Source: Neophaeotheca triangularis
Taxonomy: Eukaryota
Direction of reading: 5' to 3'
Length of the DNA stretch: 64,000 nt
Assembly: GCA_054600435.1 (NCBI GenBank)
Contig: BAAIJX010000023.1
Coordinates: 248,001-312,000, forward strand
The translations under genes and the position numbers were made by a program. Numbering within the stretch: the first letter of the stretch is position 1; each line of letters starts with the position of its first letter. The notes beneath the pieces are model-generated. The model saw nothing but the letters and a program-made list of their open reading frames with translations, was not told the DNA's origin and made no database searches. Shown here one piece after another: positions 6,276-44,519 of this stretch.

Positions 6276-7259
6276 TCATCGAGTCTCCCACTCTGCATCG
6301 TCCGCATCACTATCATCGCCGGTCCTTCCTAAAGCCAAGTCCTCAACATCCTCCACTATGTTGTCCACGGCTCTAGCGTCGGATTGTCGAGCATACTGCA
6401 TCGCTCTCTGTCGCAGTGTCGTGAAAAGTATCTCCAGCCTTGAGATGCGTAGATGCATGTCTGCTGGCAGCCGAGGAGAGTGACGCTGAATGGTGCTTTC
6501 CCGAGATGTTGCGAAGGGTGGAGGAGTCGGAGGTCTGGAAGAGAAGGGGCTGAGTTGTTGGATTGAAGGGTGACGCGGGCTTTGGGGGCTGTGAGTGCAG
6601 GAAGCGTGAGGAGGTGAGTCTTGTTGGGTCTGTGCTGGGCCGAACGGATCACTTTGCTGAGTTGTTTGAGGAGGGACCTGGAATGTTGTACCCGAGCTTG
6701 ACGGTGCTTCCATGGGTTGGGCATTGCTTAGGCGGTTTGGGGCCACACCGTGAAGCTGCTGTTGCTGCCACTGAAGCAAGCCCATCTCTCGAGTAGAGTC
6801 CGCGACGTCCCCCATGCTGAAAGGAAGAAAATGTGGTGCTTGAGGATCAAGCTGAGCCTTGTTTCCTCCGAGGGTGAATTGTGCAAAAAGCTGCGCTCGT
6901 TTACTACTGCTTACGTAGGCGGTTGTCGTCAAGAATCGATGGTTCCCTCTGGTGTACTCTTCGAGGGTGCAGCCTTGTTCGGAGTTCATGCTTGCTTCGA
7001 CGACATCTTCGTACTCAATCGTGCTGCGATCGGAACCAACCGAGCTGTGGTAGCTCGCGACATCTCCGGGACCGTCTTGCTGTGTGTTCTTATCCGATGA
7101 GCCGGGCGAATGGTCAAGAACGACTCCCTGGCGGGGAACAGGTTTTACCTCATGGAACCCATCAATACCAGCTTGCTCGAAGGTGTGGTTGGCTTCAGCG
7201 GGCGATGTTGAGCTCCACTGGAAATCAGCTTCGTTGTCTGGCGCCGTGGTAGTGCTCAT
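6276..7259 (-). CDS. Hypothetical, largely disordered S/P/Q-rich protein with a PAM2-like motif
   Basis: Long ORF 6276-7514; likely ATG 7259 (MSTTTAPDNE). Contains QLDPQAPHFLP and a helical-looking C-terminus. No family recognised. Confidence 0.5.
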   Translation of the reverse strand: MSTTTAPDNEADFQWSSTSPAEANHTFEQAGIDGFHEVKPVPRQGVVLDHSPGSSDKNTQQDGPGDVASYHSSVGSDRSTIEYEDVVEASMNSEQGCTLEEYTRGNHRFLTTTAYVSSSKRAQLFAQFTLGGNKAQLDPQAPHFLPFSMGDVADSTREMGLLQWQQQQLHGVAPNRLSNAQPMEAPSSSGTTFQVPPQTTQQSDPFGPAQTQQDSPPHASCTHSPQSPRHPSIQQLSPFSSRPPTPPPFATSRESTIQRHSPRLPADMHLRISRLEILFTTLRQRAMQYARQSDARAVDNIVEDVEDLALGRTGDDSDADDAEWETR

Positions 7260-8525
7260 TTCTGGCTTTGGAATGTCAGGCTCAGAGAGTAAGGGCTGTA
7301 CTTGTCTTATAATGCGTAAACCAGAGCTTTTGAGGTGCTGGACGACAAGCCGTAACACACGACAACAACGAATGTGTCGTCTTGATGTGCTCCTGAATGT
7401 CAAAGCCCCGTGAAAGGTGTAGACGTTTGCTACAACACGTCTCTCTCTCGAGGATTCCTGTCGTAGCTTGCTGCCTTGCTGGAAGTTCCTGGGAACCAGT
7501 AGAACAGCGTGCAATTGGCCGGGAAGAGATTTGCAGCATGTTGAATTGCTACTATATCACCCCGTATCATCTTGCTCCAGTCTTTGCGAGGATGCTGCAG
7601 AAAGTCCATGAACTTCCTGGAAGCCACGCGGAGAGCCGTAGGCCTCTAGTGGAAGATGTGGTGCTTCAGACCTACCTAGTGCAGATGGCAAGGACCTGTA
7701 GCCGAAGTTTCTTCTTATTGAATGATAAGACGACCCAGCACAAAGGGCCGGACTTTTTCAAGGTTTCTTCGTTGCCCGAAAGCGCTAGATAAGAATCACC
7801 GGTCGTTGAAGATGCCAGATGTCCTCGAGATTCGCAGCTATTCTTTATTCCAGACAAAGTGCCCGATTTTGCTTTCCCATAGAAAGAAGTGCGGTAAGCC
7901 TTTCGGTCATGATCGAGGGCGAAAGAAGGAGGTGGGTGCGCCCTCAAGGCTTCTTGAATATCGTGCCGCAAAATCGCTGAGCTGACTTCGTGCCATCACC
8001 GCATCTCGATCTCCAGCCGCAGACGGCATTGGCCTCGAGTTTCGAGGCTTTGATCCTGCTCCAACTCAACTAGCGGTGACTGACTCCAATTGCTCACGTA
8101 CCCTCACCTTCGTCAAGTGGGTAAAGGAAGGTAGGTAGTGGGTAGAAACGTGAAGGAAGAAGTGCAAAGGTCGGCATGAGGTCGGGTAACGGGACGAGCC
8201 AAGCCAATGCTTGGCACCTGACTTCTCAGGCAAGGTGTATAAAGTCGACAACCTCTGCCTTTGAATAATGGCTTCCAACACGACAGACGCATAGGACCCA
8301 TCACAACCACCACTATTCCGGCTAAATGCTCGAGAATAGGAGATGTCTCGCGAGAATCGGCAACGTGTGCGATATAAATTCTCAGCAATGCTCGTCAGAC
8401 AAAGCTTGGAACGATTGAGCTCAACAACCAATGGCAACAATATTACGGCTAGGCTATCGCAAAAGGAGCGTGTCGGTCCAAACCAGCTATCCTACTGTCA
8501 TCCCCCCGCCGGAATCTGCTGTCTT

Positions 8526-10558
8526 TCAAGCGTTCTCAGACGCCAAAACTGTTCCATCGTGGCCAACAGCAAGTCGGTGTGGGACGAGGGAGGCCTTCAC
8601 AGGGTTCTTCGCCTCGAAGACTAGATCCAACTCTTCGAGAGTGCGCTGAGAGTTGCGTCAGTATTTTTCGGCTGGTTTCTGAAAACGGAAGGAATCTCAC
8701 TCTTCTCGTCTCTGGCATCAGGAAATAGAACACAACGAACTGCACGGCATCCCACACGACAAAAACGATGTACGTCCTCCAGCCGATCTCCGCCAAAGAA
8801 ATTGGCCAAGCGAATTGGTTGAGCAGGCCGCCGATGGCGACTGCGAAACCTGAGAACGCCATACCCTTGGCACGCATCTCGAAGGACAATACTTCCACCG
8901 GGTAGAGAGCCTGCAGAGGCGTGATACCGAAGGAGTACACGCCCCCAAAGACAAAAATCATTGCCAGTGTTGCGCGTGCCGCAGCATCGTTGGTATCGTT
9001 TGACTGGGCGAATTGCGCAGAAGCAATAGTCATGCCGATCCACACGATGCAGCAACCTCCCATGGAGCCCAACTATATCAAATTCTTAGCGTACGTCATG
9101 AAAGGGTACAGGCTATTGGGGTACGAACCATCATCTTTCTTCTCCCCAAACGATCCACAAACCCTGCTCCGGCAAGAGCAAATGCGAACTGGAAGCAAGC
9201 GTAGCCGAGATTGATGTTTGCCTGCGTAGTGTCGCCTTCGTAGCCAGCTACTTCCAGCACGGCCGGGAGGAAATAGGTCAGCACGCCTATCAAACCATGC
9301 GTTAGTTCATAGAGCTCTACGCCTCAAAGGTCGGGCCCCACACATACCGTTGCCAGCCCACTGTGCAAAGATCGAAAAAGTTACGTTGACCAAAATGCGG
9401 TATCGGCTGGCGCGGGTTTTAAAAAGAGCACTGTAATCCCAGAACTTTTTATCGGCGCCATTCAGATTGAGGAACTCCTCATATTCGGAAACCTGCAGTC
9501 TGACCCAGGCGCTGTTTGGATTGTCGTACCCGTGCCATTTGGTAAGCACAGCAATAGCTTTCTCTCGTTTGTTGTTTACGAACAGCCACCTTGGAGACTC
9601 CGGAATGGCCCAGGCTGCGCACGCAATCAAGACTGGGAAGAACATCTGAAGCCAGACTGGAACTTGCCAGCTAGCGTTACCTCCTAGGTTGAGCGAGCCT
9701 CGCACAGCACCAGCGGACAGAATCGAGCCCGTGAACCAGAAGGTGTTGCAGTAAGCAGTACTTTGGTATCTCGTTAGCCAAGGGACCTTGCGTATCGCAA
9801 GAACGTTTCGACCTACACAATGCCTCGCCACGAAGGGTGCGCAGTCTAGAGCAGAAAGGTGTTCAGTAACTATTGCAGCGCAGTCATCGTGTGCAAGACA
9901 CTCACCTCGACCACGTAAATGGGACCTGCAGCGCTAACAATGTTGACTCCAAAGCCAAGGAAGAATCGACCAGCCTGAAGTTGACCGAGAGATTCGCTAC
10001 TCAGGGTCGTACCGTTCAATATGGTTCCAACGATAATAATCCAGGCTCCAATTTGCATACCCACCTGCGTTCAACGATTAATTAGTTGAAGGTTCAGCTA
10101 CACAGTCGAGAAAGGATGACGTACCTTTCTACCCCATGTGTCTACTGTCGGTCCTACGAAAGGCAGAGCGGTCACACTACCGATCTGGTACATAGCCGAG
10201 TTGAGAGCCGCCCATGGGCCGTCAACGGTGCCGTCGAAGAAGTCGAGGAAATTCGAGTTTGCCGTCAGTCCGCCAAAGAGAGATCCATCGTATCCGTTCA
10301 TGGTTTGGCAAAAGCATCCCAGCAGGAGACAACAGACAAGCAGCCAGGTCCTTGGGCTTCCGGGTCGAGTGGGCTCAGCAATGAGAGCTTCATTGTAGGC
10401 TTCGCTGCCACGGACTACTCTGACTTCGGCGATGACGCCCTGCGACGTTGTTAGCCACGCAGTTGGGTGAAAAGACTGCTGTTGTACCGGGTGAGTCGCA
10501 CCGAGTCTTTGATATCGTCAATTTTCTCTGCTATGTCCTTGCTCTCGTGTACCGACAT
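8526..10558 (-). CDS. MFS sugar porter, lactose permease/cellodextrin transporter-like
   Basis: Multi-exon gene from ATG 10558 (MSVHESKD). Motifs NGYDGS, DTWGRK, GRFFLGFG, PESPRWL, QWAGNG, VDRLGRR, YPVEVL, PET..TLEEL. TGA at 8528-8526. About 7 GT-AG introns including a ~30-nt micro-exon near 9817-9846. Confidence 0.93.
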
Positions 10559-13419
10559 GTTGGCGATGGATATTGGGTGGACTTGCGATTGAGCTAGGCT
10601 AGCTTGTTCCAGTTGCGAGTTGGGGACGAAACCGAACCATGAGGGTAAGGATACACTTCATATATACTCATTCCTCTCTCTCCCGCCTGATACACTGACC
10701 CCCTCTCGGATCGCAGTCCAGAACGTATGTTTTGCGGTTTACAAAGGTACCATACCCCATGGGGCCGGGCTGGATGTGGAGGTAAGCCGCATCCGCTACG
10801 GAGTCGCATCCTCCGCGACGCTCGGCCCTGATTGCCTGCCCATCAACCAGCAACCTTTGCCAATCCTCGACACCATTTTATGATCGCGGTAATTCTCTAG
10901 TCGTCTTCGTAACAAGCCACCACATTATACCGCACCTTAGCTAGCATGCATTTTCACTCACGGGTTCCAAGATCTCCCCTCAATTTAAACCAGAAGCCTA
11001 GGTACTCTAGGCAAATCGGCACGACCTCTCCGGCTTCCGCCAAGCTCAAACAAGGAAGGACTACCACCTGGACAATATGGTGCCCGGGAGATGCAGGTCT
11101 CCCGTTACTAATTAATCTATGCAGTGCGACTCCCCCTCCAAAGGAGACAAGCGATGGAACCCGGCTGTCAGTCTCGCTTTGCGCCCTACCCACATCTCGC
11201 ATCCTGTTTCATTTCGTTCGTTAATAAGCGAGAGGCTGCTGCTCAAACAAAGGTCAGCGCTTCCAAGGATGGGAACTGGACTAGATTTGATCGCCATCTG
11301 AATTTCATACAAGTCGTATACGGCTTCTACCAGGCGTTGTCGTAAAGCGATGTTCGCGAACATCGCTCCCACTTTAGCGCAATGTACACAGCCATTCAGC
11401 GACGCCTGGGGTCAGAGCTGTTCTGCTAACGACTCTAGCATCGGCGGCAGTCCCCGCCGTAGACAGCAAGCCCTCACGTTTCTTGGATTGAGCTTGGGGC
11501 TCGTATCAAAGCTTATGCCCGGACAGGCTCGACTGGCCGCGTTCCCGCAATCCAAGACGAAAGTTGGGCGCGGTGCTCAAAGACCACACGAAGATCCTCG
11601 CTACACCACCCACGGTCCATGTCTCCGAGACGAGGCGACGTCTGTGCTTCCATGTGTGATGAACGAGTCTTTCGATATTCTCCTTTACACTCTGAATGGG
11701 CGGTGGACACCATGGCAAGACCTGTCATGTTGTTCCAGTGATGCTTCAACTTCCTCATTCGATGGCGAGCTACGCAACTCAGCTGTTCCGGGCGACCAAG
11801 GCCTTGACAGCATCGGGGTTTGCGGGTCACGGCATTTATCGCCCTCCAGTCCACATCTACATTGCCCGGAGGCCGGAACACCTTCACCGTTTGAATGGAT
11901 CAACTAATACTTCCACAAGGCATGCAATATTCGAGTGATGCGCTTGGGATACTTGACCGTCCCTGCTTTTCGACACCTGGGACCGAACTCTGCTACCCGC
12001 CGAACCGTCTGTATAATATGCTTATTCAATGATCCGCCGAAGGCTACCACCCTCTTCTTCCAGGGTCGAAACACATGCACCGCAATGGGTAGGCCGCTCG
12101 CCCTACTCGGCACACTCGGCAAGTGAACATCTACTGAAGAGGCCTGATCTCATACAATCCAGCTGGACGTGGCGTCTCGATCCTTCAGCGACATGCGGCT
12201 GACCGCTTTCCCGAGCAAGTCCCCTGTATACCTGCATGTTCTCATCGCGGGCCGGTTGAAAAGTATTGGTAGGTCACCCAGCAACTTTCTCTAGTCGAAA
12301 CTGGCGTGATTGGAGCAACAACATCTAGGTTCGCGTCGTTGCAGGCACTAAGAGGAGCAATTGGTTGAGCTTTTAGCTTACTGCGGCCCATCTTGAGAAG
12401 GTAGGTCTCTTCAAATTTTCCGAGCCGGCCCAACAGATGAATGGTCCGAAATCGATCATGCGACGACTACAGGAGACGCAGGAGCACAAACCTTATTCTC
12501 GAGGCCAAGTAGTGATCATTACTCTTAGACCACCAGTTCAAGAGTCCCAAGAGCCTAGATGTAGACTTCTATCCCGCGGAGTTGCTACAACTATCGACCG
12601 GGTGATGCCCCGATGATCCCAGCGCCTCCTTTTATAAGTCGCCACTACTTCGTGACGACTCCATCGTCGCCCAAACCACCCTACCAGTTCACCATCGACC
12701 CTTCATGTTGCTGTTGAGCGCTGATGCTGACGGGTTGAAAGACAAAAGATCGACTGTTGATTTCGACAGCAAATAGCATGACTTCAAACGCCTCAACAAG
12801 CCGCTTGTCCAATATTTACTTCTGTGAGTCCCCCTTCGCTCCTTCAAAAGTCCACGGAATTATATCTGGCGGAGATGTACTGGATACGTTCCATTGATGC
12901 AGGCTCCGATCAACCCAGCATAACACTTCTCAGGCTTTCGCGACACTTATGCATTTCCGCAAACATCGAGGCAGATGCATCGTCCTCAAGAATTAACCTC
13001 TCCGCTCTCTTTCACGCCTTCGCCATCCCCCTATTGATACTCAAAAGGAATTGCCCCAGCCGGACATGAAAAACGGTTCCGCCGAGAAGAGAGAAGAGAT
13101 TTTGCGCGAAAAGGTTGAGCTTAGCGAAGGCGACACTGTCCGCGAGACCCCCATTATCATATCCCTCGAATCTGAGGAGAAGCGAGTCTTTGATAAGGCG
13201 ATCGGCCAGCTCGTGTCAAGCAGCCTTCCATGAGTTCCAACATCTGCTCAACTTCAAACCGCACCTAAAACCTCGCCTAGACGAACAAAAAGTCCCCGCT
13301 GCGGACGGCAATAGCAGAAATCAAGGCCAGGTTCCCAGCGTCGGCGGTCGCCAAAGGCAGCTCTTACGCTATCCGTCGTGCCAGAAACCTCAACCGACAG
13401 GATACCAAAAGGGTCGATT

Positions 13420-13800
13420 GAACTATTACTATTATTACTATTGTTACGTTCCGCCTTCGCTATACCGTAATACCGACCGAGTCATAGTCTCGCTATAATA
13501 CTAACCAAGTTATAGTCTCGGTCTTATAGGTATATTAATTCATCATGTGTATATCTATCTAGTCTAAGGTATAGGTACTAGTATAGGGGAAAGGTATATA
13601 TAAAGATAGTAATAATACAGTAAGGACTCCTATAACTCTACTAGGTCGCCAAGAGGTTTCCTAGCTATAGAGTAGTTGTAAATCCGTAGGCGAGAATAGA
13701 CGCGATTTACGGCTTCTACCTAGTTTGGAAACTTATATAGCCTACGTAATCCCTCTATTATTCGTACGGAACTAGTACTCCCAGTTCTATACGTCTCGGC
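13420..13800. mobile_element. AT/TpA-rich degenerate tract (RIP-like relic), left border of the MPE/NTase island
   Basis: Abrupt AT-rich sequence dense in TA dinucleotides (tatagtctcggtcttataggtatatt, ataggtactagtatagg); no ORF. Confidence 0.55.
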
Positions 13801-14080
13801 GCGTCGGTATCACAACGCGACAGCAGGTCGGACACGGATAACAAGACATGGTCTGTCTTCCCTCCCGGGAATCTATCCTAGGCGGCCTCTAAGTATATGC
13901 CCAGAATGCTACCTCCTACAGCTCGCACAAGCTGCATGCACAGCCGGGAAGTCGAGCCTTTGTCCTACATGACTTCATCCTTCTTTTCCTTTCTTCTCCT
14001 TTCCTTTCCGTGGGCCAATTACCAGCAAAACATGTTCTTTGCAGTCTCGTTCAAACCGTCCAGCGTCTAGACAGACAAAT

Positions 14081-14983
14081 ATGTTCCTACTCCATCAGTG
14101 TTTTGGTCGAAGAAAACCGGCGTCGCTTCCAGAAATCTCTCCGCCTTTACAAAGGCATTCGCCAGTACCGATCGAAGATGCACTCAACGCGACCAATCAG
14201 CACCCCAAAGAAGTGGTAGATGGCCGCATCCAGTACATGTCGGACCTCCATCTCGAGAAGTTCCGCGAATACAGCAAAGCAGTGATTCCGGTTGCCGCGC
14301 CCTGCCTCATACTTGTGGGGGATATCGGCAGGCTCTGCGATGCGGATATGCTCGAATTCTTGCGAGCTACATGCACGATGAATGGACGCCGGAGAGTTTT
14401 GTTCATTCCTGGCAACCATGAGTATTTCCGCACGTCGCGCTCACATGCGATACGGGCTGCTACCAAGCTCCAGCTTGAACTTGGTCCACTAGGTTTTGAG
14501 TGGATGGACCGGAAGAGGGTTCATCTAGATGGGGGCAACATCATTGTTCTGGGTTGCACATTACATTCGCACATTCCTGAGAGCGCGTCTGAGCATGTCG
14601 GGTTGCACGTGATGGATTTCCAGCTGATCGGCGACTGGGATGTCGAAGACCACAACCTGGAACACAAGAAAGACTGCACATGGCTACAACAACAAGTTGC
14701 TGAGATCTCTACCTCAATGACAAACGCCCGGATCGTGATTGCTACACACTTCCCTCCTATGTGCCACGATGCCTCGGAGGCTGACAACAAGAAATTCTTC
14801 TACGGCAGGCATACTATAGACGCTTTTCTCGAGTGGGAAGGCAACGACAAGGTCACGCACTGGATTTCTGGCCATACGCATGAAAATCACGACTTCTTAC
14901 GCGGATCTACGAGGTTCATTAGCAACCACAGGATGTTGCGAGACGACGGGTACAGCTTTGACCCCATGGCAACGATATTGTAG
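14081..14983 (+). CDS. Calcineurin-like metallophosphoesterase (fungal 'Ser/Thr protein phosphatase superfamily' type), intronless
   Basis: All five MPE motifs in order: SDLHLE, GDIG, GNHE, THFPP, GHTH. First ATG at 14081. Confidence 0.92.
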   Translation: MFLLHQCFGRRKPASLPEISPPLQRHSPVPIEDALNATNQHPKEVVDGRIQYMSDLHLEKFREYSKAVIPVAAPCLILVGDIGRLCDADMLEFLRATCTMNGRRRVLFIPGNHEYFRTSRSHAIRAATKLQLELGPLGFEWMDRKRVHLDGGNIIVLGCTLHSHIPESASEHVGLHVMDFQLIGDWDVEDHNLEHKKDCTWLQQQVAEISTSMTNARIVIATHFPPMCHDASEADNKKFFYGRHTIDAFLEWEGNDKVTHWISGHTHENHDFLRGSTRFISNHRMLRDDGYSFDPMATIL

Positions 14984-15099
14984 GATACTAGAGCCTAGAA
15001 TATGTCAGACCTCGGTACTACATCACGTTCAAGATCCCCAAACTCCGTCACGACACCCAATGCCACGCTTTCAAAACCGCGCCCCCTCCCGCAGACTAC

Positions 15100-16177
15100 T
15101 CAAGCGCCTATACCGAAACGCTTCTCAATGTCGCGGAAAAAGGACTTTCGTTTCGCAGCGTCCTTCTCCAAGGTCTTACGCTGTTTATCCTTGATCGCTT
15201 CGTACCCTACAGGTGCTTCGACACCTTGCTTCTCTAATCCCTTCCATTCCCAGTAGGTTCGAAGCAGACCGAGGTACTCTTGGATGCAGGAATAGTGGAC
15301 GGCACCGTCCGCATTGATCTCCGCTCGAACCTGAGGAATGGACTGGAGCATCGCGGCGTTAGCCTGCTGCTTTATCCGCTGTAGCCCATCTTGCACTGTC
15401 TGTCCTGTCGGAACTGGTTCACGCGTAGAGTTCAGGCCTTGCCTCCCCGCCGTGGCCATACGATCGATGAGATTCAACCCATTGATGTGCTCGGCTTCAG
15501 AAACGTTGGGCGCACCTTCTCTTTTCGCTTGCGCTTCCTTGCGGCACGTACTGACGTCAAAGCCCAGTCTCAGGAAGTATTGTTCCAAGATCGGGAATCG
15601 CAATATGGCTTCACCAGCCATGACAGACGTGAGTTGTTGTTTCAAACCGGTTAAACGCGACCCATGAGCATGCATGAGCCAGAGAACGTCATCTTTGTCC
15701 TTGGTATAGCCCCTTGACGTGATGGCATTCATCTTCAACTTCAAGATCTGGAGCGGAGTTGGTATCGGGATGTAGAGTCCATTGCTCGTGCTGTTGATGA
15801 TTACGATTCCGTCCATGCTCACCGAAAGAATTGTTAGCGATACCGTGGTTCATCAATCACGGCAGCGGAGTTCGAAACATACGCGGAAACACGTCGACTT
15901 GAATGTGGCTTGCATTCTTGGGTTGTTTCAAAGAGAACTTGATGAAGCCTCCTGTCGGGTCGGTGGTGAGGTGTGTAAACAAAGTCTTCTGGCTGGCGAA
16001 GATATCCAAGATGCGTACGGCTGGGGCACCCGCCCACACGTCAATATCCCCGGGCGTACGCTCTTGGTGGCCCAGCTGGACAAGTGCGATAGAGCCGCCA
16101 AAGTAGTGAGCCACTTCACCCTTCAAGAGCTGGTGTACCAATAATACAGCGCGGCTGAGTTCCGTAGACAGGGGCAT
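15100..16177 (-). CDS. AbiEii/DUF1814/MenT-like nucleotidyltransferase with ~190-aa C-terminal extension; splice acceptor anomalous (possible pseudogene)
   Basis: Exon 1 from ATG 16177 encodes YFGGSIALVQLGHQERTPGDIDV...IQVDVF (GG-x-A...R...D-I-D plus third acidic). Exon 2 encodes PLQILKLKMNAITSRGYTKDKDDVLWL (K..A...R...KD..D). Intron signals: GTATGT donor at 15882 and CTAAC branch at ~15837. Confidence 0.72.
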
Positions 16178-16729
16178 GACTGCGCCTCTAGTTGCGAACC
16201 AGAACGAAGTAATAACAGAATGTATCGACACAAGTCGACGAAGCGGCCCTTTGTAATGGATGGTTGGATGTCAGATTGTGGACTCTCCGGGTAAAAAGGC
16301 AAGAAAGGCAAGGAGGTGATGCAGTCCCTCATAGCTGCGGCTCTTTGCTATCTGAGATTAGACAGAATCAAGACCGAGGACTACGCAGTCTCTGCATTCC
16401 TCGCTAAGGCGGCTCCAACCTAGCTCTTGGGACTGGTATTACTGAAAAAGCGAGGAGGACAAGGCCAGGGGACCCGGAAGCGAAGTGTGTAGCCCCGTGC
16501 CGTGCTGATTGCGTTGAAAGAGGAGTATCAGAGTCCGCGAATGGCCCGTGGGTCTGAGTCCAGTGTGGTCTGTAATCACAAGCAATTTACGGCGCTCGAG
16601 TCCTGTAGTCCCTGCTCCGCGCCTAGAGCGCCCAAGAAAGACTAGCTTCCACCTTGCATCTTTTGATGAACGTACGGATATCGTGGTATTATCATTAGGG
16701 GCTCGGCTACAGCAAGGCTGAGCAAGCAA

Positions 16730-17035
16730 TTAGTTAGCTTAGACCACATAGGAGGTCACTCGTAGTGTAATATGGAGGAGTCATAAAGCTATACCGGTTA
16801 CCTGCCTCCTCCCTGTCTACTCGCGTCCTGTAGTCGATGAATAGATAGTAAAGTTGAGCTTTTAGCCTATTAAGCTAATAAAAAGCAAGTCAGAATTATA
16901 CTAGCTAAGAATAGGAGACAGCCTATAAGTATATATAGGGAGTTACATATGCGTAGATGATCTACAAAGTCCCCAAGAAGCTTTATGTCAGGTAGTTAGG
17001 AGGGCGAAGGGTGACGTGCTAGTACGTCAATTTAG
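16730..17035. mobile_element. AT/TpA-rich degenerate tract (RIP-like), right border of the island
   Basis: TA-rich sequence (tttagcctattaagctaata, cctataagtatatatagg); no ORF. Confidence 0.5.
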
Positions 17036-17039
17036 TTTT

Positions 17040-17195
17040 AGGTGCAGGTGTAGGTATAGGTAGAGTTGTAGGTAGAGGCGTAGGTATTGGTTTAGGCGTG
17101 GGTAAAGGTATAGATATAAGTATAGGTATAGGTACAGGTATAGGGATAGGTACAGGTACAGGTATAGATATAGATATAAGCATAGGCATAGATAA
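17040..17195 (+). repeat. Degenerate hexamer tandem repeat, consensus ~(AGGTAT)n
   Basis: About 25 imperfect 6-mers: aggtgt, aggtat, aggtag, aggtac, agatat, aggcat. Confidence 0.9.
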
Positions 17196-18359
17196 ACAAT
17201 AACAAGGACGCAAAAAAAGAAAAAAAAAGTGGTATAATACAACAACACAAAGCTCTGTCGCTCTCCTCTCCACCCTCTCCATTCCAACCCATCCGCCCCC
17301 AACCCCGCCCAAACTACCCAGTTCCGCCCGTCCTCTAATCCCCTCCCCAACCTCCAAGCCCCGAGCAAGTCCAAAATCCGGATCAGCGTCCCCGTTCTAC
17401 ATCACTCCCACGCCACCCGCTCGAAGCCAACCCACCACTCTCACACCCGCCCCCCATTCCAAAAAGCGCCCCACCCAGGACTCGCATCAAACCCGCCCAG
17501 ATGCCAAACTCCCAGCTGCAAAGAAAGCCACAGCTCCCCCGGTGTTGGAACAGTGTCCCTCTCCAGACACTTGCCCGACGGAGCTTGGGTCCGCTTAACC
17601 CTCCGGTGGGGGTTTAGTGGTCCGAGGGCGAGGTTTTGGAAGACGAGGGATAGGACCAGTTGGATGAGGAGAGGGCGGGAGTCGGCGAGAGTCGGAAAGG
17701 CTGGGGGTGAGGGGTGAGGGTGCAGTATGTAGATGTGGAATCGGAAAAAAGGGGAGGGGCTCGAGGAGGAGCGAAGTAATGAGGACAAGAATGACGAGTA
17801 GGGGGGGCAGGCGGGGGGAAGGGTTAACAGTTAGTTTTAACCCTCTTCTTCCTAGCCCAGCCCTCCTTTTTCTAAGTCCAGCTGAACGGAGTCCAACCAT
17901 ATCCCAATGAATCCAATCCAAATTCAAACCCAGATGGATATTCCTGGACTGCCTCAAACACCGCCAAACACCCTGCCGTGATTTTTAAAAAGAACCACCC
18001 CCCCGGAAATCTCGACAAATGCCCGCAATTGCCTGCTTCGCTTGCGAGAAATAGAGCAACAGCGGAATGCAACAGCTGCCGCCGCCGTGATGAGGGTATT
18101 TTATGCAATAAAAAAGAGTGACCTGGCTCTTCCTCCCTGTCAATAAGCCCCTCAAATGTAGTATCCAAGCTCTTCCTGCTTTTTCCAGACGAACCGTCCA
18201 CGGCCGAGCGCATCGGCTCTGTTCTGTTCTCTTAGCACCTACCGGCTACCTCGTCGAGAATGTATTCCAACGCGCCGGGCGAAAGTGTCTCCAAAGCTTC
18301 GAAAAAACCATTCGCAACCCACCCCTTTTCCCGTCTCCTCTTCTTCCCCTCTCCTAATT

Positions 18360-19547
18360 TCACTTCTCCCTCCCAGGCTTAACACACCGTCCCCTCCTAC
18401 CCACATTCTCCCTCAACCACTCAAACCTCCTCAGATCCCCACTTTCAAACCAAAATTCCCCACTCCAAAACCCACAACCCACATTACTCGTCTCCCTACG
18501 CCAAGCAACCTGCTCCAGCCCCGCCTGATCGACAGGAGGGCGATGAACTTCGTGCCCACTGGCGACCTCGACACCCGCAATCATGCTCTCGCCTTCCATA
18601 TGGTGGAATAGTTCGGGTTGGAGAGTGAAGCATTTGGGAAGCACGGCGTCGCGGCAGCCGGAGAGTATGGCGGCGTCGTAGGCGATGAGGCCGATTGAGG
18701 GGTCTTCGTGGGGTGGGGCGACGGTTGTCAGGAGTGCTTGCGCGGTCCGGCGGGTTATGGCGTAGCCGAAGGAGCAGAGGGGGAATCTCGATTTGTGGAG
18801 GACGCGGTTGTGAGGGGGGACGTCGAGGGCGGTTAGGAGGGAGGCGGTGAAGGGGTGGAGATCTGTACGGTCGGGGAGGGAGGGGTCCGGGAATAGGGCG
18901 TGCGGGATGCTGGTTAAGTTGTTCGGGTGGTGATGGCCGACGCCGACGCCTTCGGCTAGTGGGTTGAGGTAGTCGCCGCAGTGGCCGAGGTAGAGGAGGT
19001 CCCAGTCGATGGTGGGGGTACCCCAGGGGTATTTGGATTTGTCGAGGAGGTGCGAGGTGGTTGCGAGAGAGCGGGCGGCTTTTTGCGCGAGTGGGATGGA
19101 GAGGGTGCGCAGGCGAATGTCCCAGTCGACGTCGTCTTCGAAGATGAGGGCGGTTTCGAGGCCGGATTCGAGGAAGGCGCGGAGGACGAGGTGGTGGGAG
19201 AGCCAGGCTTTGACGCTGCCGGCGCCGATGACGGATTGATATGTCTCGTTATGGTATTGGAACTCGCGCACATGCTCGTCGTTCCATTCTACTTGTTGCG
19301 GGATTGTTAGTTGTAATTCTGTGATGGCCGCCGCTTGTTGGAGATGTGTGCGCCGTGGTGAAGCGGGTGCGGACACGACAAAGAGCCCGCCGAAGCCTAG
19401 GGTTGCGTTTGCGGCGGATATGCCGTGTAGTTTGCTGATGCTGGGTATGTCATCGTGCCAGCGGTATATGAGGAATACGCAGAATACGATTGCGGCTATT
19501 GTTATCCATATTGGGCGGAAATTGGGGTAGGATGTGAGGGTAAGCAT
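18360..19547 (-). CDS. Glycosyltransferase family 25 protein (type II membrane)
   Basis: N-terminal TM helix, NATLGFG, AWLSH, ALIFEDDVDWD, WDLLYLGHC, PLCSFGYAIT. Confidence 0.9.
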   Translation of the reverse strand: MLTLTSYPNFRPIWITIAAIVFCVFLIYRWHDDIPSISKLHGISAANATLGFGGLFVVSAPASPRRTHLQQAAAITELQLTIPQQVEWNDEHVREFQYHNETYQSVIGAGSVKAWLSHHLVLRAFLESGLETALIFEDDVDWDIRLRTLSIPLAQKAARSLATTSHLLDKSKYPWGTPTIDWDLLYLGHCGDYLNPLAEGVGVGHHHPNNLTSIPHALFPDPSLPDRTDLHPFTASLLTALDVPPHNRVLHKSRFPLCSFGYAITRRTAQALLTTVAPPHEDPSIGLIAYDAAILSGCRDAVLPKCFTLQPELFHHMEGESMIAGVEVASGHEVHRPPVDQAGLEQVAWRRETSNVGCGFWSGEFWFESGDLRRFEWLRENVGRRGRCVKPGREK

Positions 19548-20670
19548 GGTAATTGCTGCTATCGGGAGGAGAGGTGGTGGTGCGGAGCGGAGGACATGCG
19601 CGCGGGCGCGGGCGGCGGTGGGTGTATGGATGGGTGGTTTGGCGGATGGACGAAGGACGAGCGGGTTTTAGAGCGGCATCAGATGATAGGGATGGCTCGG
19701 CGCGAAGCACCAAGAGGTAAGGTAAGGGTGGTTGTCGATATCTGTTGTAAACAGTGTGGATTGATGGAGGCGGTAGTAGTACCTATGCCTATATAGTGTG
19801 CGACAGGGCGAAGACTGCGCCAAGTGGGAGGTGTTGGGTGATAGTAGATTTGTAGAAAGTAGAAAGGAGGCCTGCCGCCTGCTTAAGAGACGAGGATGAG
19901 GTGGGGCTGGGGGGACGAGGTGGTGTACCTTGGCTAATTCGAAGCCAGTCGTTTGTTACCGAATAGTATTGTATACCTGATATGTGTAGTTGGTAGTTGG
20001 TAGTGGTAGTTGTATATGATTGCTAGATACTGATCAAGTACTCTATGTCTAGAATGAATGCCCGGTTTGCTTAGAATAGTAACTACCACCTTCTTCTTCA
20101 AGTACCTTACCTTCTTAACGTGTGGATTATTGGGTTGAAGCCGACCGGCTGTCCGCATGGTCGGGTTGCCAACCCTAATAGCCTCCGTCCTTAACCTTCA
20201 CCACTTTATTAGTTAATATCTATCCATCGTTTATTACTACTTTGTATGATGAAAGATTGAAATATCACGCGTGGGACAACTGACTGCGAATGAACTGGTG
20301 CAAGCAATCAAATCTTTACTTGATTACCCAGACAAGTCACACCTCTCCTCTTCAGATTCGCATCGAGCATCTCGGCAGTCAAGCGCGTCATTGAGGACAG
20401 ACGAAACAAAAAGGTCTGTAAATATTCAAACACAAGGCGAAAAATCTACTGTGGTTTCCTGACGGACAAAAACTTCTGCGATAAACCGACGCAACGACAG
20501 CAACGCCACGCCAACCCTGCTTCCCTTACTCACTCCCGCCCCAGACTGCCCAAACACACAAATCCGCTCTACAGCAGCAAATAGTCGGACGTCACACCTC
20601 CCCCACGAATCGAGTCCCTCCCAAACACCCCCAACACTCTCTCCTTCTCAACCACCTCCCCCCAACACCC

Positions 20671-40548: not shown

Positions 40549-42393
40549 TTACTTTTGGGGAGGGGGGAGGGGGGTGGGTTTTGTGGGGGACGTTTTTTGT
40601 TTCTTGTTCTCGAGAATCTGGATGCGGTCGGCGTAAGGGTTGGTGTAGGGGTTGTGGAGTTCGGCGATGGTGCTCATGCAAGCGGCTGCTGGGTCGCCGC
40701 TGGCCGTCAGGCTGCCGTTCCAGTACTCGTTGCCGGGAAACGAGTTGCCATCCCATGCATAGCTGAGGACTAGCAGTTGATCCGTGTTGATTTTTTCCGC
40801 TGGATTGCGCTTGCTGAACACGGCCTTGATGCCCTGGGTCTTGGCTGCCAGGGTGACCGCGTCGATGGTCGCTTTGGCGACGCTGATGTAAGCGAACTCC
40901 AACGTCCCGATGCGAGGGAGACTTAGTTCTTCCAGCGCTTGCGTGAAAGCCTCGATGTAGTATTGCGGCTGCTGAGCGCTACGCTGCCAGACTCCCAACC
41001 CAAGACCTACGACATACGTATACGCTTGCCGGCCATCTCCAGCGGCGCGACGATCGGCCTCCATCAGCAATATATCGATGGTGATGCGCATACGAGCCTT
41101 GTACATGTCGACGTCCAAACCAGGCTTCTCACTTTTCACGAGACCAGGACCGAGCCACTGTTGGAAGATCTCGCTCAGACAAGAGTCTTGCTTTGGATTC
41201 TTGACCGTGGGAAGCATGTGCACCGAATCCATACGGTCAGGTCTCTCGAAACGCGCGCCCACCAACCCAACGATGACGCCCCTCGTCTCGAACGTCCCGG
41301 GCTTACCTGGCTTCCCGCTGTTGTTGCGGTTACCATCGTTGATGAAATGACTCGGCCCACTGACCCCCACCAGAGACGCCAGCATGATTTCATCATAACT
41401 CAGATACTCCTCCAACGTCAATGTGGCGTTCTGATCTTGCTCCATGGTGCCGTTGCGGTCCCACTCGGCTTTCGAATTCTTGAGCTTGCTGCCGTCGCGG
41501 AGAACCGTGAAGTCGTTTCCGCCCATGAAGACGAGAGGGCGCTTAGTGACGAGGCGGGTCACGAGATCCTGCCAGGTGAAACCATTCGGACGGCCGTAGA
41601 AGGCTTGTTCGTACGTTGAGCCCATGGTACGCTTATGGGCGAGGAAGCTTTCGAGTAGTTTTGGGAAGCGCGAGTGGATGATGATGGTTGTGGCTTTGGC
41701 GTCGGCGGCGATGGTGGCTGGGTCGAATTTTTTGATGGTGTTCGTGGTGATTGAAGGGTTGATGTTGAGGCGGTTGGGCGTGAGGAAGGACAATGGGTCG
41801 CCTTTGGATGGCGAGGTTTTGCTGGTGTTGGTCATTGAGCCACCTTTTGCCTTTTTGGGTGAAGTAGGCTTGCTGTCGACCTTCGATACATCGCTTTTCT
41901 TGTCGGGAGACGTAGACTTCGTTCTAGCTGTAGAGCTAGCTTTTGACTTTTGTTTGATGGCAGCTGCGGTTTCAATCTTCCCCTCTGCCTTCAACTTGGA
42001 GGCCCCCTTGCTTGCAGCGCGAGACCTCTTGCTGGCCGCAACATCCTTAGGTTTGGCGGCTGAAGCTGCTTTTGGAATGTCCTGCTTCTCAGCCTTTGGC
42101 TTGGATACCTTGCTACCGGCATCTTTGGACTTGACAGTCTTCCCCTCAGCAGCTTTCTTCGTCGCAATGGAGGAGTTCCTCGCAGCCGCTGTATTGGCCC
42201 CGGCGGAAACGTTTTTAGCAGCACGTGGAAGCCTTGCCCTCATAGCCGCAGTCTTCGAAGCCGCCTTTACGAATGACTTTTTAGTGGCAGTAGCAGTAAC
42301 AATCCTTCCAGTGGTTTCGTCAGCGTCATCGTTATGTTGAGCCTTCTTCTCAATCGCGCCGACCCCCTTGACAGCTTTGCGCTTAGGAGACAT
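40549..42393 (-). CDS. DUF4804/MavL-like macrodomain protein with ~200-aa Lys/Ala-rich N-terminus
   Basis: C-terminal motifs EEYLSYDEIMLASL, FINDGNRNN, GLVGARFE, VGLGLGVW, YAWDGNSFPGNEYW, SGDPAAAC...ELHNP recalled as DUF4804-like. ATG 42393 (MSPKRK). Confidence 0.8.
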   Translation of the reverse strand: MSPKRKAVKGVGAIEKKAQHNDDADETTGRIVTATATKKSFVKAASKTAAMRARLPRAAKNVSAGANTAAARNSSIATKKAAEGKTVKSKDAGSKVSKPKAEKQDIPKAASAAKPKDVAASKRSRAASKGASKLKAEGKIETAAAIKQKSKASSTARTKSTSPDKKSDVSKVDSKPTSPKKAKGGSMTNTSKTSPSKGDPLSFLTPNRLNINPSITTNTIKKFDPATIAADAKATTIIIHSRFPKLLESFLAHKRTMGSTYEQAFYGRPNGFTWQDLVTRLVTKRPLVFMGGNDFTVLRDGSKLKNSKAEWDRNGTMEQDQNATLTLEEYLSYDEIMLASLVGVSGPSHFINDGNRNNSGKPGKPGTFETRGVIVGLVGARFERPDRMDSVHMLPTVKNPKQDSCLSEIFQQWLGPGLVKSEKPGLDVDMYKARMRITIDILLMEADRRAAGDGRQAYTYVVGLGLGVWQRSAQQPQYYIEAFTQALEELSLPRIGTLEFAYISVAKATIDAVTLAAKTQGIKAVFSKRNPAEKINTDQLLVLSYAWDGNSFPGNEYWNGSLTASGDPAAACMSTIAELHNPYTNPYADRIQILENKKQKTSPTKPTPLPPPQK

Positions 42394-44519
42394 GATTGCA
42401 CAACAGGTTCCCAAGTAGCAGACCCATCCTGAGCGGCGTAGCTAAGAGTGTATTAAGAAAATCGAAAAGAGAAAGCAGAAACCTACGTGTGTATGTCTGT
42501 CGAGTGTGGAATGCAAATGTAATGCGTGGCATGCGTTGCTATATCCGCTCGTAATACCTCCCTGCGGCGATGCATGTCTTGCATTAGGTCTTGGAGAGAC
42601 ATATTGCGGTAGTCCGTGTCAAAAAAGAAACAAAACACGAGTTCCAACTGTCGAGGGCTGGTCTCATGTATTAAATGTATGGTACCTTCTTGCTGCGCCT
42701 CAACGCTGGCTGTGCAATCCCTCGCCTCCACGGGGTATGCTGACAGCGGTCGGAAGTTGTCACCCTTTACCATTCCCTCTCGCTAAAAGCCACAAACGTC
42801 TACGCCTATCTTTTAGACACCTTGACGCCTGGAGGTAAGTTTGAGAGCGCACTATTCCTGTGATGGAGGGACAAACCAAGGAGCGTAGTAAAATCTACAT
42901 TTTATCTGGCAATTTCAGCCCAATTCCTATATCATCTGGCCGGTGCTCCTCGAAACGGCAATGATGACCAAGGTCGCAGTTGACTTGTGGCAATCCCGAT
43001 CAATGAAGATAAGTAACAAGGCAGCTGTTCGAACAATAAAGAAGTGAAAAGAATCAAGCTGGGGCATCACAGACCTGAGCCCCAACAGACCAGAACCACC
43101 CTATGGCCTGTGGTCGCAGACTGCTTAGCCGTTGCTCCTCCCTCCTCACGCTCCTCCTACAGGTGTCGATTAAACTGTCCCAAGCACTTCTGAGTCTTCT
43201 ACCCATCTTGACGCTTTGGGTCTCCCGCCCGCTTCGGAAGGTATTGATGGAGGAGCTAGGCAGCGTCTTAACGAATGATCAAGCGCTGACCTAGAATTGT
43301 AGCCGTACCGTGTTGCTTGTCAACTCGGGTCGAGGTCCGGTCTAACAATCGCTCTTGGAGCTCGTTGGAGAGAACGCTATGGGTCGCAGCATCATAAAAA
43401 ACCTCTGCATCCTCATTGCCTCTACCATAGCGCGGCGCGGAGCCGGTCCACCTTGCCAAAATTACCCAAGCTAGAGCCCCTTCCAAAACCCCATGCGTTA
43501 GACATGTTCCGCGTCGCCTTCAGTGCTAAGGCACGGGAGAGCGGACTCGAGCTCTTCGGAAGAAATGCTTTTGCCCGCGAGTTGTTGAAACGTGGCCACT
43601 TTCTTTGACAAGAAGCTTCCATAGAGCGGCGGTGTAGTGTAGAAATACAGAGAAAAGTGAGAGAAAATCCCTCGAGATCGATACGAGGGTGGAGAGACTT
43701 ATCCTTGGCGCATGGGAAACGGGGGACCTGGTGTGGATGAAAGAGAGGCGGATTGCGGACGCAAATGAGGGGTAAGGGAGGTGGGGAGTGGGAGAACAAG
43801 AGGGGAAGGAGAAGCTGCCTGCTGTATTGTTAAGGCAACGTTGCAATCGTGTGAGAGGGGGCGGGGCGTGGCCTGGGAACAACAAATTCCAAGGAAAAGT
43901 CGTGGCCGGGAGAGCTGATATCGATCATACCGGGCAATGCAGCATAGTGAATTCGCATGAACAACTATAAGGATGGGTACGTCTTGGTGAGGCTAGTTAT
44001 CTCCCCAGCTGCCTGGCCACAAGGTAGTGTAGTCTTCAGTTGGTTGGTAGAAGATAGCAGAGTGGGTACGTAGTATACCTTGTAGTGTCAAGTGAAGTTG
44101 AAAGAGACACTTCCGCGGCGAAAGGGAGAAGCAGCCCAGCCTTACCTTATCGAAGCATTTTATCTTATCTTTTAGCCTTGCGAGATCGGCGGCATCGCGT
44201 GCTGAACTTTCGCAAGACTCTGAGTGGCGCCGAGTCTCGGGCTTATCTTATCGTAGGTATCATTTTGCGATAACGATGCCCTGGCGGCCGGACGTTTTTT
44301 TGTTGATGTCGTTCGTTCGCTCGGTTCGGAAATAGTCGAGAGGAAAGATTCACTGCATGTCGTGATTATCGTAGATATACTACTCGTAATCACTCAATCC
44401 CTTTCTTTGTTGGGGCGTCTGGAGTCACCGTCTCCCCATTTCTTCCGCCCTTTCGCTCGTCTTCGGCTGTCACAATCCAAACTACCTATCGCCTCGACTC
44501 ATCCCACTTCGACCTAGCC

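Follow-up and report, generated by a model that had tools for sequence, protein, structure and literature searches.

Do a phosphoesterase and a nucleotidyltransferase whose genes lie end to end in a fungal chromosome form a functional unit, and if so, what could one enzyme do for, or against, the other? The question is raised by a stretch of 64,000 nucleotides (nt) of Neophaeotheca triangularis DNA (GenBank assembly GCA_054600435.1, contig BAAIJX010000023.1, positions 248,001 to 312,000), hereafter called the window, in which an earlier note had recognized convergent genes for a metallophosphoesterase (MPE) and for a nucleotidyltransferase (NTase) of the AbiEii/MenT type. It had interpreted them as a candidate toxin-antidote or writer/eraser module. 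The NTase-MPE module is real and recurs in divergent fungi, and that interpretation is partly supported. In the window, the intronless MPE gene (14081..14983, forward strand) and the two-exon NTase gene (16177-15100, reverse strand) converge on a spacer of 116 nt (14984..15099). Because their stop codons are separated by this distance only, the 3' untranslated regions of the two genes must abut or overlap.

Recurrence of the pair in fungal loci

Loci were gathered from metagenome contigs with the MPE family only, and the NTase was looked for only afterwards in these MPE-selected loci. Relatives of the MPE are encoded in 381 of 597 matched stretches, the best 80 of which were kept (L001-L080). 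A maximum-likelihood tree of the MPE was calculated from 51 sequences, namely the proteins P0001, P0005-P0029 without P0027 (24 proteins), P0033 and P0038, and the loci L001-L020, L023, L051, L058 and L073; it left out 40 of 67 homologous proteins and 56 loci.

The fungal clade of this tree holds 13 loci (L001-L012 and L015), and in five of them an NTase of the family found in the window lies beside the MPE. Three of these NTase genes are convergent with the MPE gene, with stop-to-stop spacers of about 54, 15 and 69 nt (L001, L004 and L009, respectively), one is divergent, with another open reading frame (ORF) in between (L010), and one is in tandem, where an intronless NTase gene comes first, about 1 kb from the MPE (L012). 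A sixth locus, L007, contains an NTase pseudogene, which brings the loci with an NTase or its remnant to 6/13. Across the MPE and exon 2 of the NTase, L007 (886-1396) and L009 (1610-2121) are 94% identical in DNA. Exon 2 of L007 carries a frameshift and an in-frame stop, the divergence from L009 lies inside the intron and exon 1 is gone; the MPE of L007 is apparently intact. The NTase of L009 has a Leu in place of the third carboxylate.

The MPEs of the linked loci are 30-40% identical to the MPE of the window, and these loci and the window occupy separate deep branches of the tree. All-versus-all tblastx of the linked loci and of the window between 10 and 20 kb revealed nothing shared except the MPE, the NTase and one ORF of L004 and L010 only. 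Pfam searches of the neighbours likewise recovered other genes at each locus, for instance TsaD/Kae1 and Myb in L012 and a transporter and a GT25-like ORF in the window. The linkage anticipated by the earlier note is therefore found repeatedly, in varied orientations and among unrelated flanks. Adjacency in six divergent lineages and three orientations, without shared flanks, is far beyond chance, and inherited synteny by itself hardly explains the pair. On account of these six lineages, the three orientations and the absence of shared flanking genes, we consider it highly probable that MPE and NTase are functionally coupled and constitute a conserved fungal two-enzyme module.

The ORF common to L004 (3320-4030, forward strand) and L010 (1378-1977, reverse strand) encodes about 200 amino acids (aa) belonging to no Pfam family; the two copies are 35% identical over 97 aa (E 1e-15). 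In L010 the ORF stands as a gene of its own between NTase and MPE, and in L004 it precedes the MPE domain in the same frame; tblastx detected no counterpart in the window between 10 and 20 kb. P0038 from Fonsecaea monophora, the sister of L004 in the tree, is 479 aa long, compared with 224-327 aa for most members of the MPE family.

The metallophosphoesterase

The MPE gene is a single intact ORF that runs from the ATG at 14081 to the TAG at 14981-14983 and encodes 300 aa, in agreement with the intronless gene and the motifs described earlier. Its translation contains SDLHLE, GDIGR, GNHEY, LGCTLHSH, THFPP and GHTHEN. The di-metal motifs DxH, GD, GNH[ED], H and GHxH are thus all kept, which places the protein in the Metallophos family, and Pfam PF00149 (Metallophos) recognizes it with 28.9 bits against a cut-off of 21.5 (E 1.9e-6). 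The invariant columns of an alignment of 25 family members (A4), including the metal site, are all kept as well, and residues 48-293 are colinear with the homologues. The closest named relatives are found in Dothideomycetes (Meristemomyces, Elasticomyces, Phyllosticta) and Lecanora, and others in Fonsecaea.

An AlphaFold model of the MPE reached a predicted local distance difference test score (pLDDT) of 83.2 overall and above 90 in the beta-sandwich core. The best Foldseek match of this model is Mycobacterium tuberculosis PptH (6unc; E 6e-11, 17% identity, template-modelling (TM) score about 0.55-0.59), followed by a second group formed by Dbr1 (E 8e-8, TM score 0.35-0.44), and the gene is accordingly described as PptH/Dbr1-like by fold. 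Purple acid phosphatases, SMPDL3A, Rv0805, GpdQ, LpxH and Mre11 are lower neighbours. PptH is also the best sequence-profile match, a weak one (E 0.0028) confined to the first 70 residues. The 46 Foldseek matches listed include no PPP-type protein phosphatase. PPP protein phosphatases are characterized by the signatures GDxHG and GDxVDRG, in place of which the window MPE carries SDLHLE and GDIGR.

At the N-terminus (residues 1-50, 14081-14230), the first 43-45 residues or so are predicted to be disordered (pLDDT below 50). This leader is basic and rich in Ser and Pro, its first acidic residue is at position 18, and a similar acid-free leader precedes the MPE of L012. The leader may be an organelle-targeting peptide.

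The nucleotidyltransferase and its interrupted frame

Four catalytic motifs characterize AbiEii/MenT enzymes: hG[GS], [DE]x[DE], h[DE]h and K..A..R....D..D. All four are present in the window NTase as FGGS, DIDV, VDVF and KLKMNAITSRGYTKDKDD, and the same columns are invariant in an alignment of its family (A3, see below). Exon 1 (15883..16177, reverse strand, ATG at 16177) encodes a helix and then motifs I to III, within the strings YFGGSIAL, GDIDVW and IQVDVF, and ends in phase 1 at a conserved intron position. Exon 2 (15100..15817, reverse strand) is an open frame of 249 codons with its motifs intact; it encodes motif IV (KLKMNAITSR..KDKDD) in another frame than exon 1 and a C-terminal tail of about 140 aa, and ends with a TGA stop. 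Its translation contains KLKMNAITSRGYTKDKDDVLWL. The NTase motifs, the coordinates and the stop-to-stop distance had all been given correctly in the earlier note, and its word 'repaired' for the NTase was apt, given that the two exons lie in different frames.

The intron defined by the consensus donor (15818..15882, reverse strand, 65 nt) has a GTATGT donor, a CTAAC branch-like site and only one AG: the junction reads CCG C|GTATGT at 15882 and CTAAC, with the single AG at 15818. Splicing between these sites shifts the frame of exon 2 by one base and leads to a stop at codon 104. A full-length protein of 338 or 344 aa is obtained only via weak donors, GTTTCG at 15878 (61-nt intron) or GTGATT at 15860 (43-nt intron). 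The NTase genes of L001, L009 and L010 have a phase-1 intron just after the motif III strand, with the donors GTATGC, GTATAT and GTGAGA, and their spliced proteins of 225-244 aa are uninterrupted. For L004, a phase-1 model (donor GTAAGC) is among the three best, a phase-2 model with GTTCTG scoring slightly higher. The window intron agrees in position and phase with the introns of L001, L009 and L010 and with one of these three L004 models. The frame disruption is not an assembly error, since contigs of the source run (depth 125) and a 1102-nt contig from an air metagenome sequenced in an unrelated run have the same DNA at the junction. The window NTase, which is probably compromised, either depends on a poor splice site or lost its function very recently; it may be a young pseudogene.

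Among 5.8 billion proteins, a word-indexed search with exon 2 matched nothing but the ORF itself. Exhaustive phmmer with exon 2 detected four relatives, P0071 and P0072 (both E 3e-11), P0073 (1.5e-4) and P0074 (9e-4). P0073, from Elasticomyces elasticus, is full-length (229 aa), the other three being ORF fragments. A profile search started from these relatives yielded 27 proteins, mostly hypothetical, of about 230 aa and from many different Pezizomycotina, some of them labelled nucleotidyltransferases by their source; 25 of the 27 make up A3. AbiEii is the best Pfam family for 21 of these 25 (E <= 1; best 1.9e-6), while DUF6036 matches eight and Aminoglyc_resit three. Database sources name DUF1814/AbiEii-like proteins in Aspergillus, Blastomyces, Trichophyton, Fusarium, Cordyceps and others. 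The product of exon 2 aligns with A3 in hhalign with a probability of 95.9% (E 5e-9; exon residues 19-98, A3 columns 127-206).

The fold was modelled for P0073 as the family representative, with A3 as alignment, instead of the split protein of the window. The AlphaFold model (pLDDT 90.7, predicted TM score 0.88) has a pol-beta-type NTase fold with a MenT-like helical C-terminal half. It superposes on a Paracoccidioides brasiliensis protein (5uvd, E 4e-7), on MenT3/TglT (5e-6) and MenT1 (5.5e-6), and on JHP933 and MenT4, all within 4e-7 to 1e-3 and with Foldseek probability 1.0; CCA-adding enzymes, CD-NTases and LnuA are weaker matches. The Paracoccidioides protein was reportedly described by Coitinho and co-workers in 2019 as an antigenic nucleotidyltransferase-like protein. 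Against PDB, the A3 profile likewise finds 5uvd best (E 0.0028), and then MenT1 (8an4, E 0.006). The AbiEii/MenT fold assigned by the earlier note thus holds for the family to which exon 2 is tied. Neither window exon product, scanned singly, which lowers the score, matches Pfam AbiEii (PF08843) at E <= 1 or reaches its cut-off of 22.5 bits, of which P0073 (19.4 bits) and the L012 NTase (21.3 bits) fall narrowly short. As judged from sequence and from the modelled relative, the window NTase is a predicted divergent member of a fungal AbiEii/MenT-fold family, in which it is placed because exon 2 matches A3, exon 1 is colinear with it, and the position and phase of the intron are common to both.

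Bacterial relatives of the phosphoesterase

In one bacterial subclade of the tree, the MPE adjoins HAD_SAK_2 in all three members (L016, L051, L058), and in L063 an MPE relative adjoins a DSP/PTP-SAK phosphatase. According to Pfam, both neighbours occur in 'Swiss Army Knife' proteins for RNA repair; a literature search for a description of 'Swiss Army Knife' RNA repair found none. In another subclade, a bona fide AbiEii adjoins the MPE in both members (L023, L073). L073 is an MPE-AbiEi-AbiEii operon (PADLOC AbiEii 2.5e-95, AbiEi 2.8e-60), and operons of this kind, with gaps of 3-4 nt, are present in L073 and L081-L083. The last three belong to 80 loci (L081-L160) from Bacteroidales genomes, obtained by scanning prokaryote genomes for MPE relatives.

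The setting of L023 is a defence island. Directly after its AbiEii gene, L023 encodes (7035-10754, forward strand) a 1239-aa fusion of this MPE type with an AEP-TOTE primase, a ResIII/DEAD helicase and a PLD nuclease. In the loci L081-L160, the MPE also occurs in a prophage-like gene trio, whose other members are a protein of about 355 aa containing a helix-turn-helix and an unnamed protein of about 264 aa; a Dam methylase and DUF2586 are often near.

Observations that weigh against coupling

Several observations weigh against a coupled module in which the NTase is of the AbiEii/MenT type. In seven of the 13 MPE loci of the fungal clade, the available sequence does not contain an NTase, be it with less than 400 nt of 3' flank (L003, L005, L008) or with 1.2-10 kb (L002, L006, L011, L015), and NTase remnants were not found in the 11 NTase-less loci among L001-L017 (E <= 0.05). 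The named homologues of the NTase and those of the MPE have no assembly in common, so that, going by the database entries, many NTases may be without an MPE. In the window itself, the NTase is frame-disrupted at the conserved intron, whereas the MPE is intact. Sequence searches with the window NTase exons gave nothing usable in Pfam, NCBIfam, PADLOC or PDB, the hhalign alignment of exon 1 with A3 columns 1-63 is colinear but weak (E 0.0025, probability 11.9%), and members of the fungal NTase family miss the PADLOC AbiEii models at E <= 1e-3. In bacteria, AbiEi-AbiEii adjacency is limited to 4/80 prokaryote genome loci (L081-L083, L132) and AbiE adjacency to 2/68 among L013-L080 (105 neighbouring ORFs scanned), whereas in 57 of the 80 loci L081-L160 the MPE is the last gene of the same-strand prophage-like trio. 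Since AbiE adjacency is rare and the trio common, descent of the pair from a bacterial ancestor is not favoured, and the bacterial adjacency is not counted as strong support. A complex prediction on the intronless L012 pair gave no answer (score 0.00) and is evidence neither way.

A possible writer and its eraser

How could the two enzymes be coupled? MenT toxins add nucleotides to the 3' ends of tRNA (PMC7450476, PMC10435456, PMC11162799). By analogy, the fungal NTase would add nucleotides to a hydroxyl group, most likely at a 3' end, be it of tRNA or of some other RNA. The MPE would hydrolyse the phosphodiester made by the NTase and so reset the substrate, acting as an enzymatic eraser or antidote that stands in for the DNA-binding AbiEi/MenA antitoxin of bacteria. 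The MPE is proposed as the eraser because its nearest folds cut phosphodiesters hanging on macromolecules: PptH cleaves Ser-O-phosphopantetheine of proteins and Dbr1 the 2'-5' bond of RNA. PptH strips phosphopantetheine from carrier proteins, in opposition to PptT (PMC8557913), and 3' ribonucleases are a recognized way of reversing NTases (PMC11375011). The bacterial MPE relatives next to HAD_SAK_2 or AbiEii have neighbours connected with RNA ends or with conflict. Taken as a whole, this is the reading that we prefer, tentatively. The folds, the motifs and the recurrent adjacency are observations, while from the analogy we infer the substrate, the direction of the antagonism and any toxicity; a 'conflict' role of the pair, with a toxic NTase and an antidote, would follow from the same inference only. 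In the window genome, the MPE is intact and the writer NTase may already be disabled. Where the NTase decays and the MPE stays intact (L007, L009, possibly the window), this fits a dispensable or harmful writer, without being proof of it.

The main alternative, which we consider doubtful, is a phospho-switch in which the MPE would take an inhibitory phosphate off the active-site Ser/Thr of the NTase, located two residues before the DxD motif, and so re-arm the NTase; the MPE would be an activator or regulator, not an antidote. Phosphorylation of S78 (S78-K79-D80-x-D82) switches off MenT3/TglT, and MenT1 is switched off when it phosphorylates its own T39 (T39-R40-D41-x-D43) (PMC11375011); a phosphatase of unidentified nature has been postulated to undo MenT silencing (PMC7205606). 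In the fungal family, position -2 is Ser or Thr in 23/25 members (S/T-K-D-x-D, counted from A3), HMMER aligns this residue with the MenT1 Thr, and the tightly packed bacterial MPE-AbiEi-AbiEii operons also speak for this reading. However, the -2 Ser has also been described as conserved for its part in catalysis (PMC11375011), and its conservation alone says little; in the window NTase, Pro occupies -2 and Thr -3. The MPE is without PPP signatures, and the 46 fold matches listed for it are mostly phosphodiesterases. Moreover, an AbiEi/MenA-like inducer of auto-phosphorylation is not seen near the fungal pairs among the ORFs scanned. In the window, Pfam scans covered 19 ORFs (from those of at least 130 aa, 1-35.5 kb), 10 ORFs of at least 170 aa (35.5-64 kb) and 6 blanks rescanned more loosely, and no AbiEi-type (COG5340) family was found among these 19 + 16. 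Nor did it appear in 28 ORFs scanned from L001, L004, L009, L010 and L012; the control L073 matches AbiEi_4.

Repair of RNA ends is a less probable alternative, which we regard as unlikely. The MPE would heal a 3' end left by a ribotoxin (2',3'-cyclic phosphate or 3'-phosphate) and the NTase would rebuild nucleotides such as the CCA of tRNA. The neighbourhood of bacterial MPE relatives and the two 'Swiss Army Knife' families points in this direction, as do the CCA-adding enzymes among the weaker NTase fold matches and the action of MenT-family enzymes on tRNA 3' ends reported in the articles cited above. Yet the NTase finds its best fold matches among toxins and not among CCA-adding enzymes, a ligase or kinase partner is absent from the fungal loci examined, and loss of the NTase beside a kept MPE (L007, possibly L009 and the window) is better explained by a dispensable or harmful writer.

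It is very unlikely that the two enzymes have unrelated substrates and are neighbours only because their microsynteny was inherited or because both genes lie in a variable compartment of the genome. It is true that the NTase is missing from more than half of the fungal-clade loci, that L007 and L009 are too similar to be independent, and that bacterial adjacency is rare and occurs in defence-island or prophage settings. Against this stand the six lineages (window, L001, L004, L009/L007, L010 and L012) with their dissimilar MPEs on deep branches, the three relative orientations and the lack of any other common gene except the third ORF of L004 and L010; chance adjacency of two such small families is about 1e-3 or less per locus by a rough estimate that does not derive from genome counts. 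Least probable of all is small-molecule chemistry: the NTase would produce a nucleotide signal for the MPE to degrade, or attach a nucleotide to a xenobiotic, as antibiotic NTases do, with the MPE processing the product. Pointing this way are CD-NTases, LnuA and the ANT(2'')-like Aminoglyc_resit family (3/25 members) among the matches of the NTase, and the nucleotide or small-molecule phosphodiesterases SMPDL3A, Rv0805 and GpdQ among the fold neighbours of the MPE. These matches are weaker, however, than those to MenT and to PptH/Dbr1, respectively, and no effector or sensor gene was found with the pair in the fungal loci examined.

A wider picture, possible but distinctly uncertain, would embrace both the eraser and the removal of a silencing phosphate. 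Pezizomycotina would harbour an old, patchily retained toxin module derived from MenT/AbiEii, whose DNA-binding antitoxin was replaced by a phosphoesterase that either strips tRNA-added nucleotides or removes the silencing phosphate. If this were true, the MPE would, under the second option, be the 'unidentified phosphatase' postulated by the MenT field, and toxin-antidote dynamics in a eukaryote would have left their trace in the repeated decay of the NTase beside the intact MPE (L007, perhaps L009 and the window).

Surroundings of the pair in the window

The window is fungal: it contains spliceosomal introns and genes for a RhoGEF with CNH, an arginyl-tRNA synthetase, a sirohaem synthase, a sugar transporter and an FMO. 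The nearest neighbours recognizable by Pfam are the exons of the sugar transporter on one side (8539-9933, reverse strand) and a weak GT25-like ORF on the other (18363-19667, reverse strand), which makes the 'gene-poor island' of the earlier note a modest one. Its TpA-rich flanks do exist on both sides. They are short, at 13501..14000 upstream of the MPE (TpA/ApT 1.60, GC content 0.44) and at 16501..17500 upstream of the NTase (TpA/ApT 1.46-1.52), occur only once in the window and match each other neither as inverted nor as direct repeats. A 6/12/18-nt tandem array at 17019-17192, made of AGGTAT-like units spaced by 12/18 nt, gives the right flank some of its 'degenerate' appearance.

The suggestion that the pair is cargo of a Starship or another mobile element was not substantiated. 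No captain tyrosine recombinase or transposase was found among the window ORFs scanned, which smaller or intron-split genes could escape; there are no terminal repeats around the pair, and the flanks are not repeated. Elsewhere in the window (40552-42441, reverse strand), a 630-aa ORF on this fungal chromosome matches the MavL-like ADP-ribosylhydrolase family of Pfam, PF16062 (E 3.3e-87), named after the macrodomain effector MavL.

Novelty and significance

Fungal DUF1814/AbiEii proteins are already in print (PMC7205606, PMC11375011); genome papers of 2026 list them (PMC13468701, PMC13448219), and one states that their function in fungi is unclear (PMC13468701). A pair of an AbiEii/MenT/DUF1814 protein with a metallophosphoesterase was not described in the literature searched, subscription journals lying outside its coverage. 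The earlier note knew of no such pair described in fungi, and only the pairing seems to be undescribed. The folds are known, as is the occurrence of the family in fungi; what seems new is the recurrent NTase-MPE pairing, which gives a MenT/AbiEii-type NTase an enzymatic partner in a eukaryote. This recurring partner provides the first testable functional context for the AbiEii-like family in a eukaryote, and it bears on how NTase toxins of the MenT family are reversed or re-armed, a question described as open in the bacterial field (PMC7205606).

Comparison with known systems

Several known systems come close to the fungal pair. In bacteria, a relative from the same MPE family stands beside a true AbiE pair, in the order MPE-AbiEi-AbiEii in Alistipes and Bacteroides (L073, L081-L083) and AbiEi-AbiEii-MPE in L132. 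In contrast to the fungal pair, these loci keep the AbiEi antitoxin, account for only 4/80 related bacterial loci and are found in a prophage-like setting (DUF2586, Dam), and the arrangement may be co-location only. The Paracoccidioides brasiliensis protein 5uvd is fungal and provides both the best structural and the best PDB profile match of the NTase family; its identity is 16% only, and it belongs to another family than the window-type NTase.

Dbr1 is likewise an MPE and hydrolyses an RNA phosphodiester, but its C-terminal domain is absent from the window MPE (300 aa compared with about 350 aa) and a link to splicing is not evident. PptH (Rv2795c) resembles the role proposed here for the MPE, as an eraser of a macromolecule-attached phosphodiester that opposes a transferase (PMC8557913). 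It is 17% identical to the MPE, and the opposing writer would here be an NTase and not a phosphopantetheinyl transferase.

Lastly, the MenT/AbiEii toxins (DUF1814, COG2253) share their fold with the fungal family, as seen in the matches to MenT3, MenT1 and MenT4, and their four motifs with the window NTase, including K..A..R....D..D, which in the fungal family is accompanied by S/T-K-D-x-D. The fungal gene differs from them in being eukaryotic, with a conserved spliceosomal intron, and the window protein is too remote for Pfam and carries its long C-terminal tail. The recurring partner in fungi is an MPE instead of AbiEi/MenA (COG5340).

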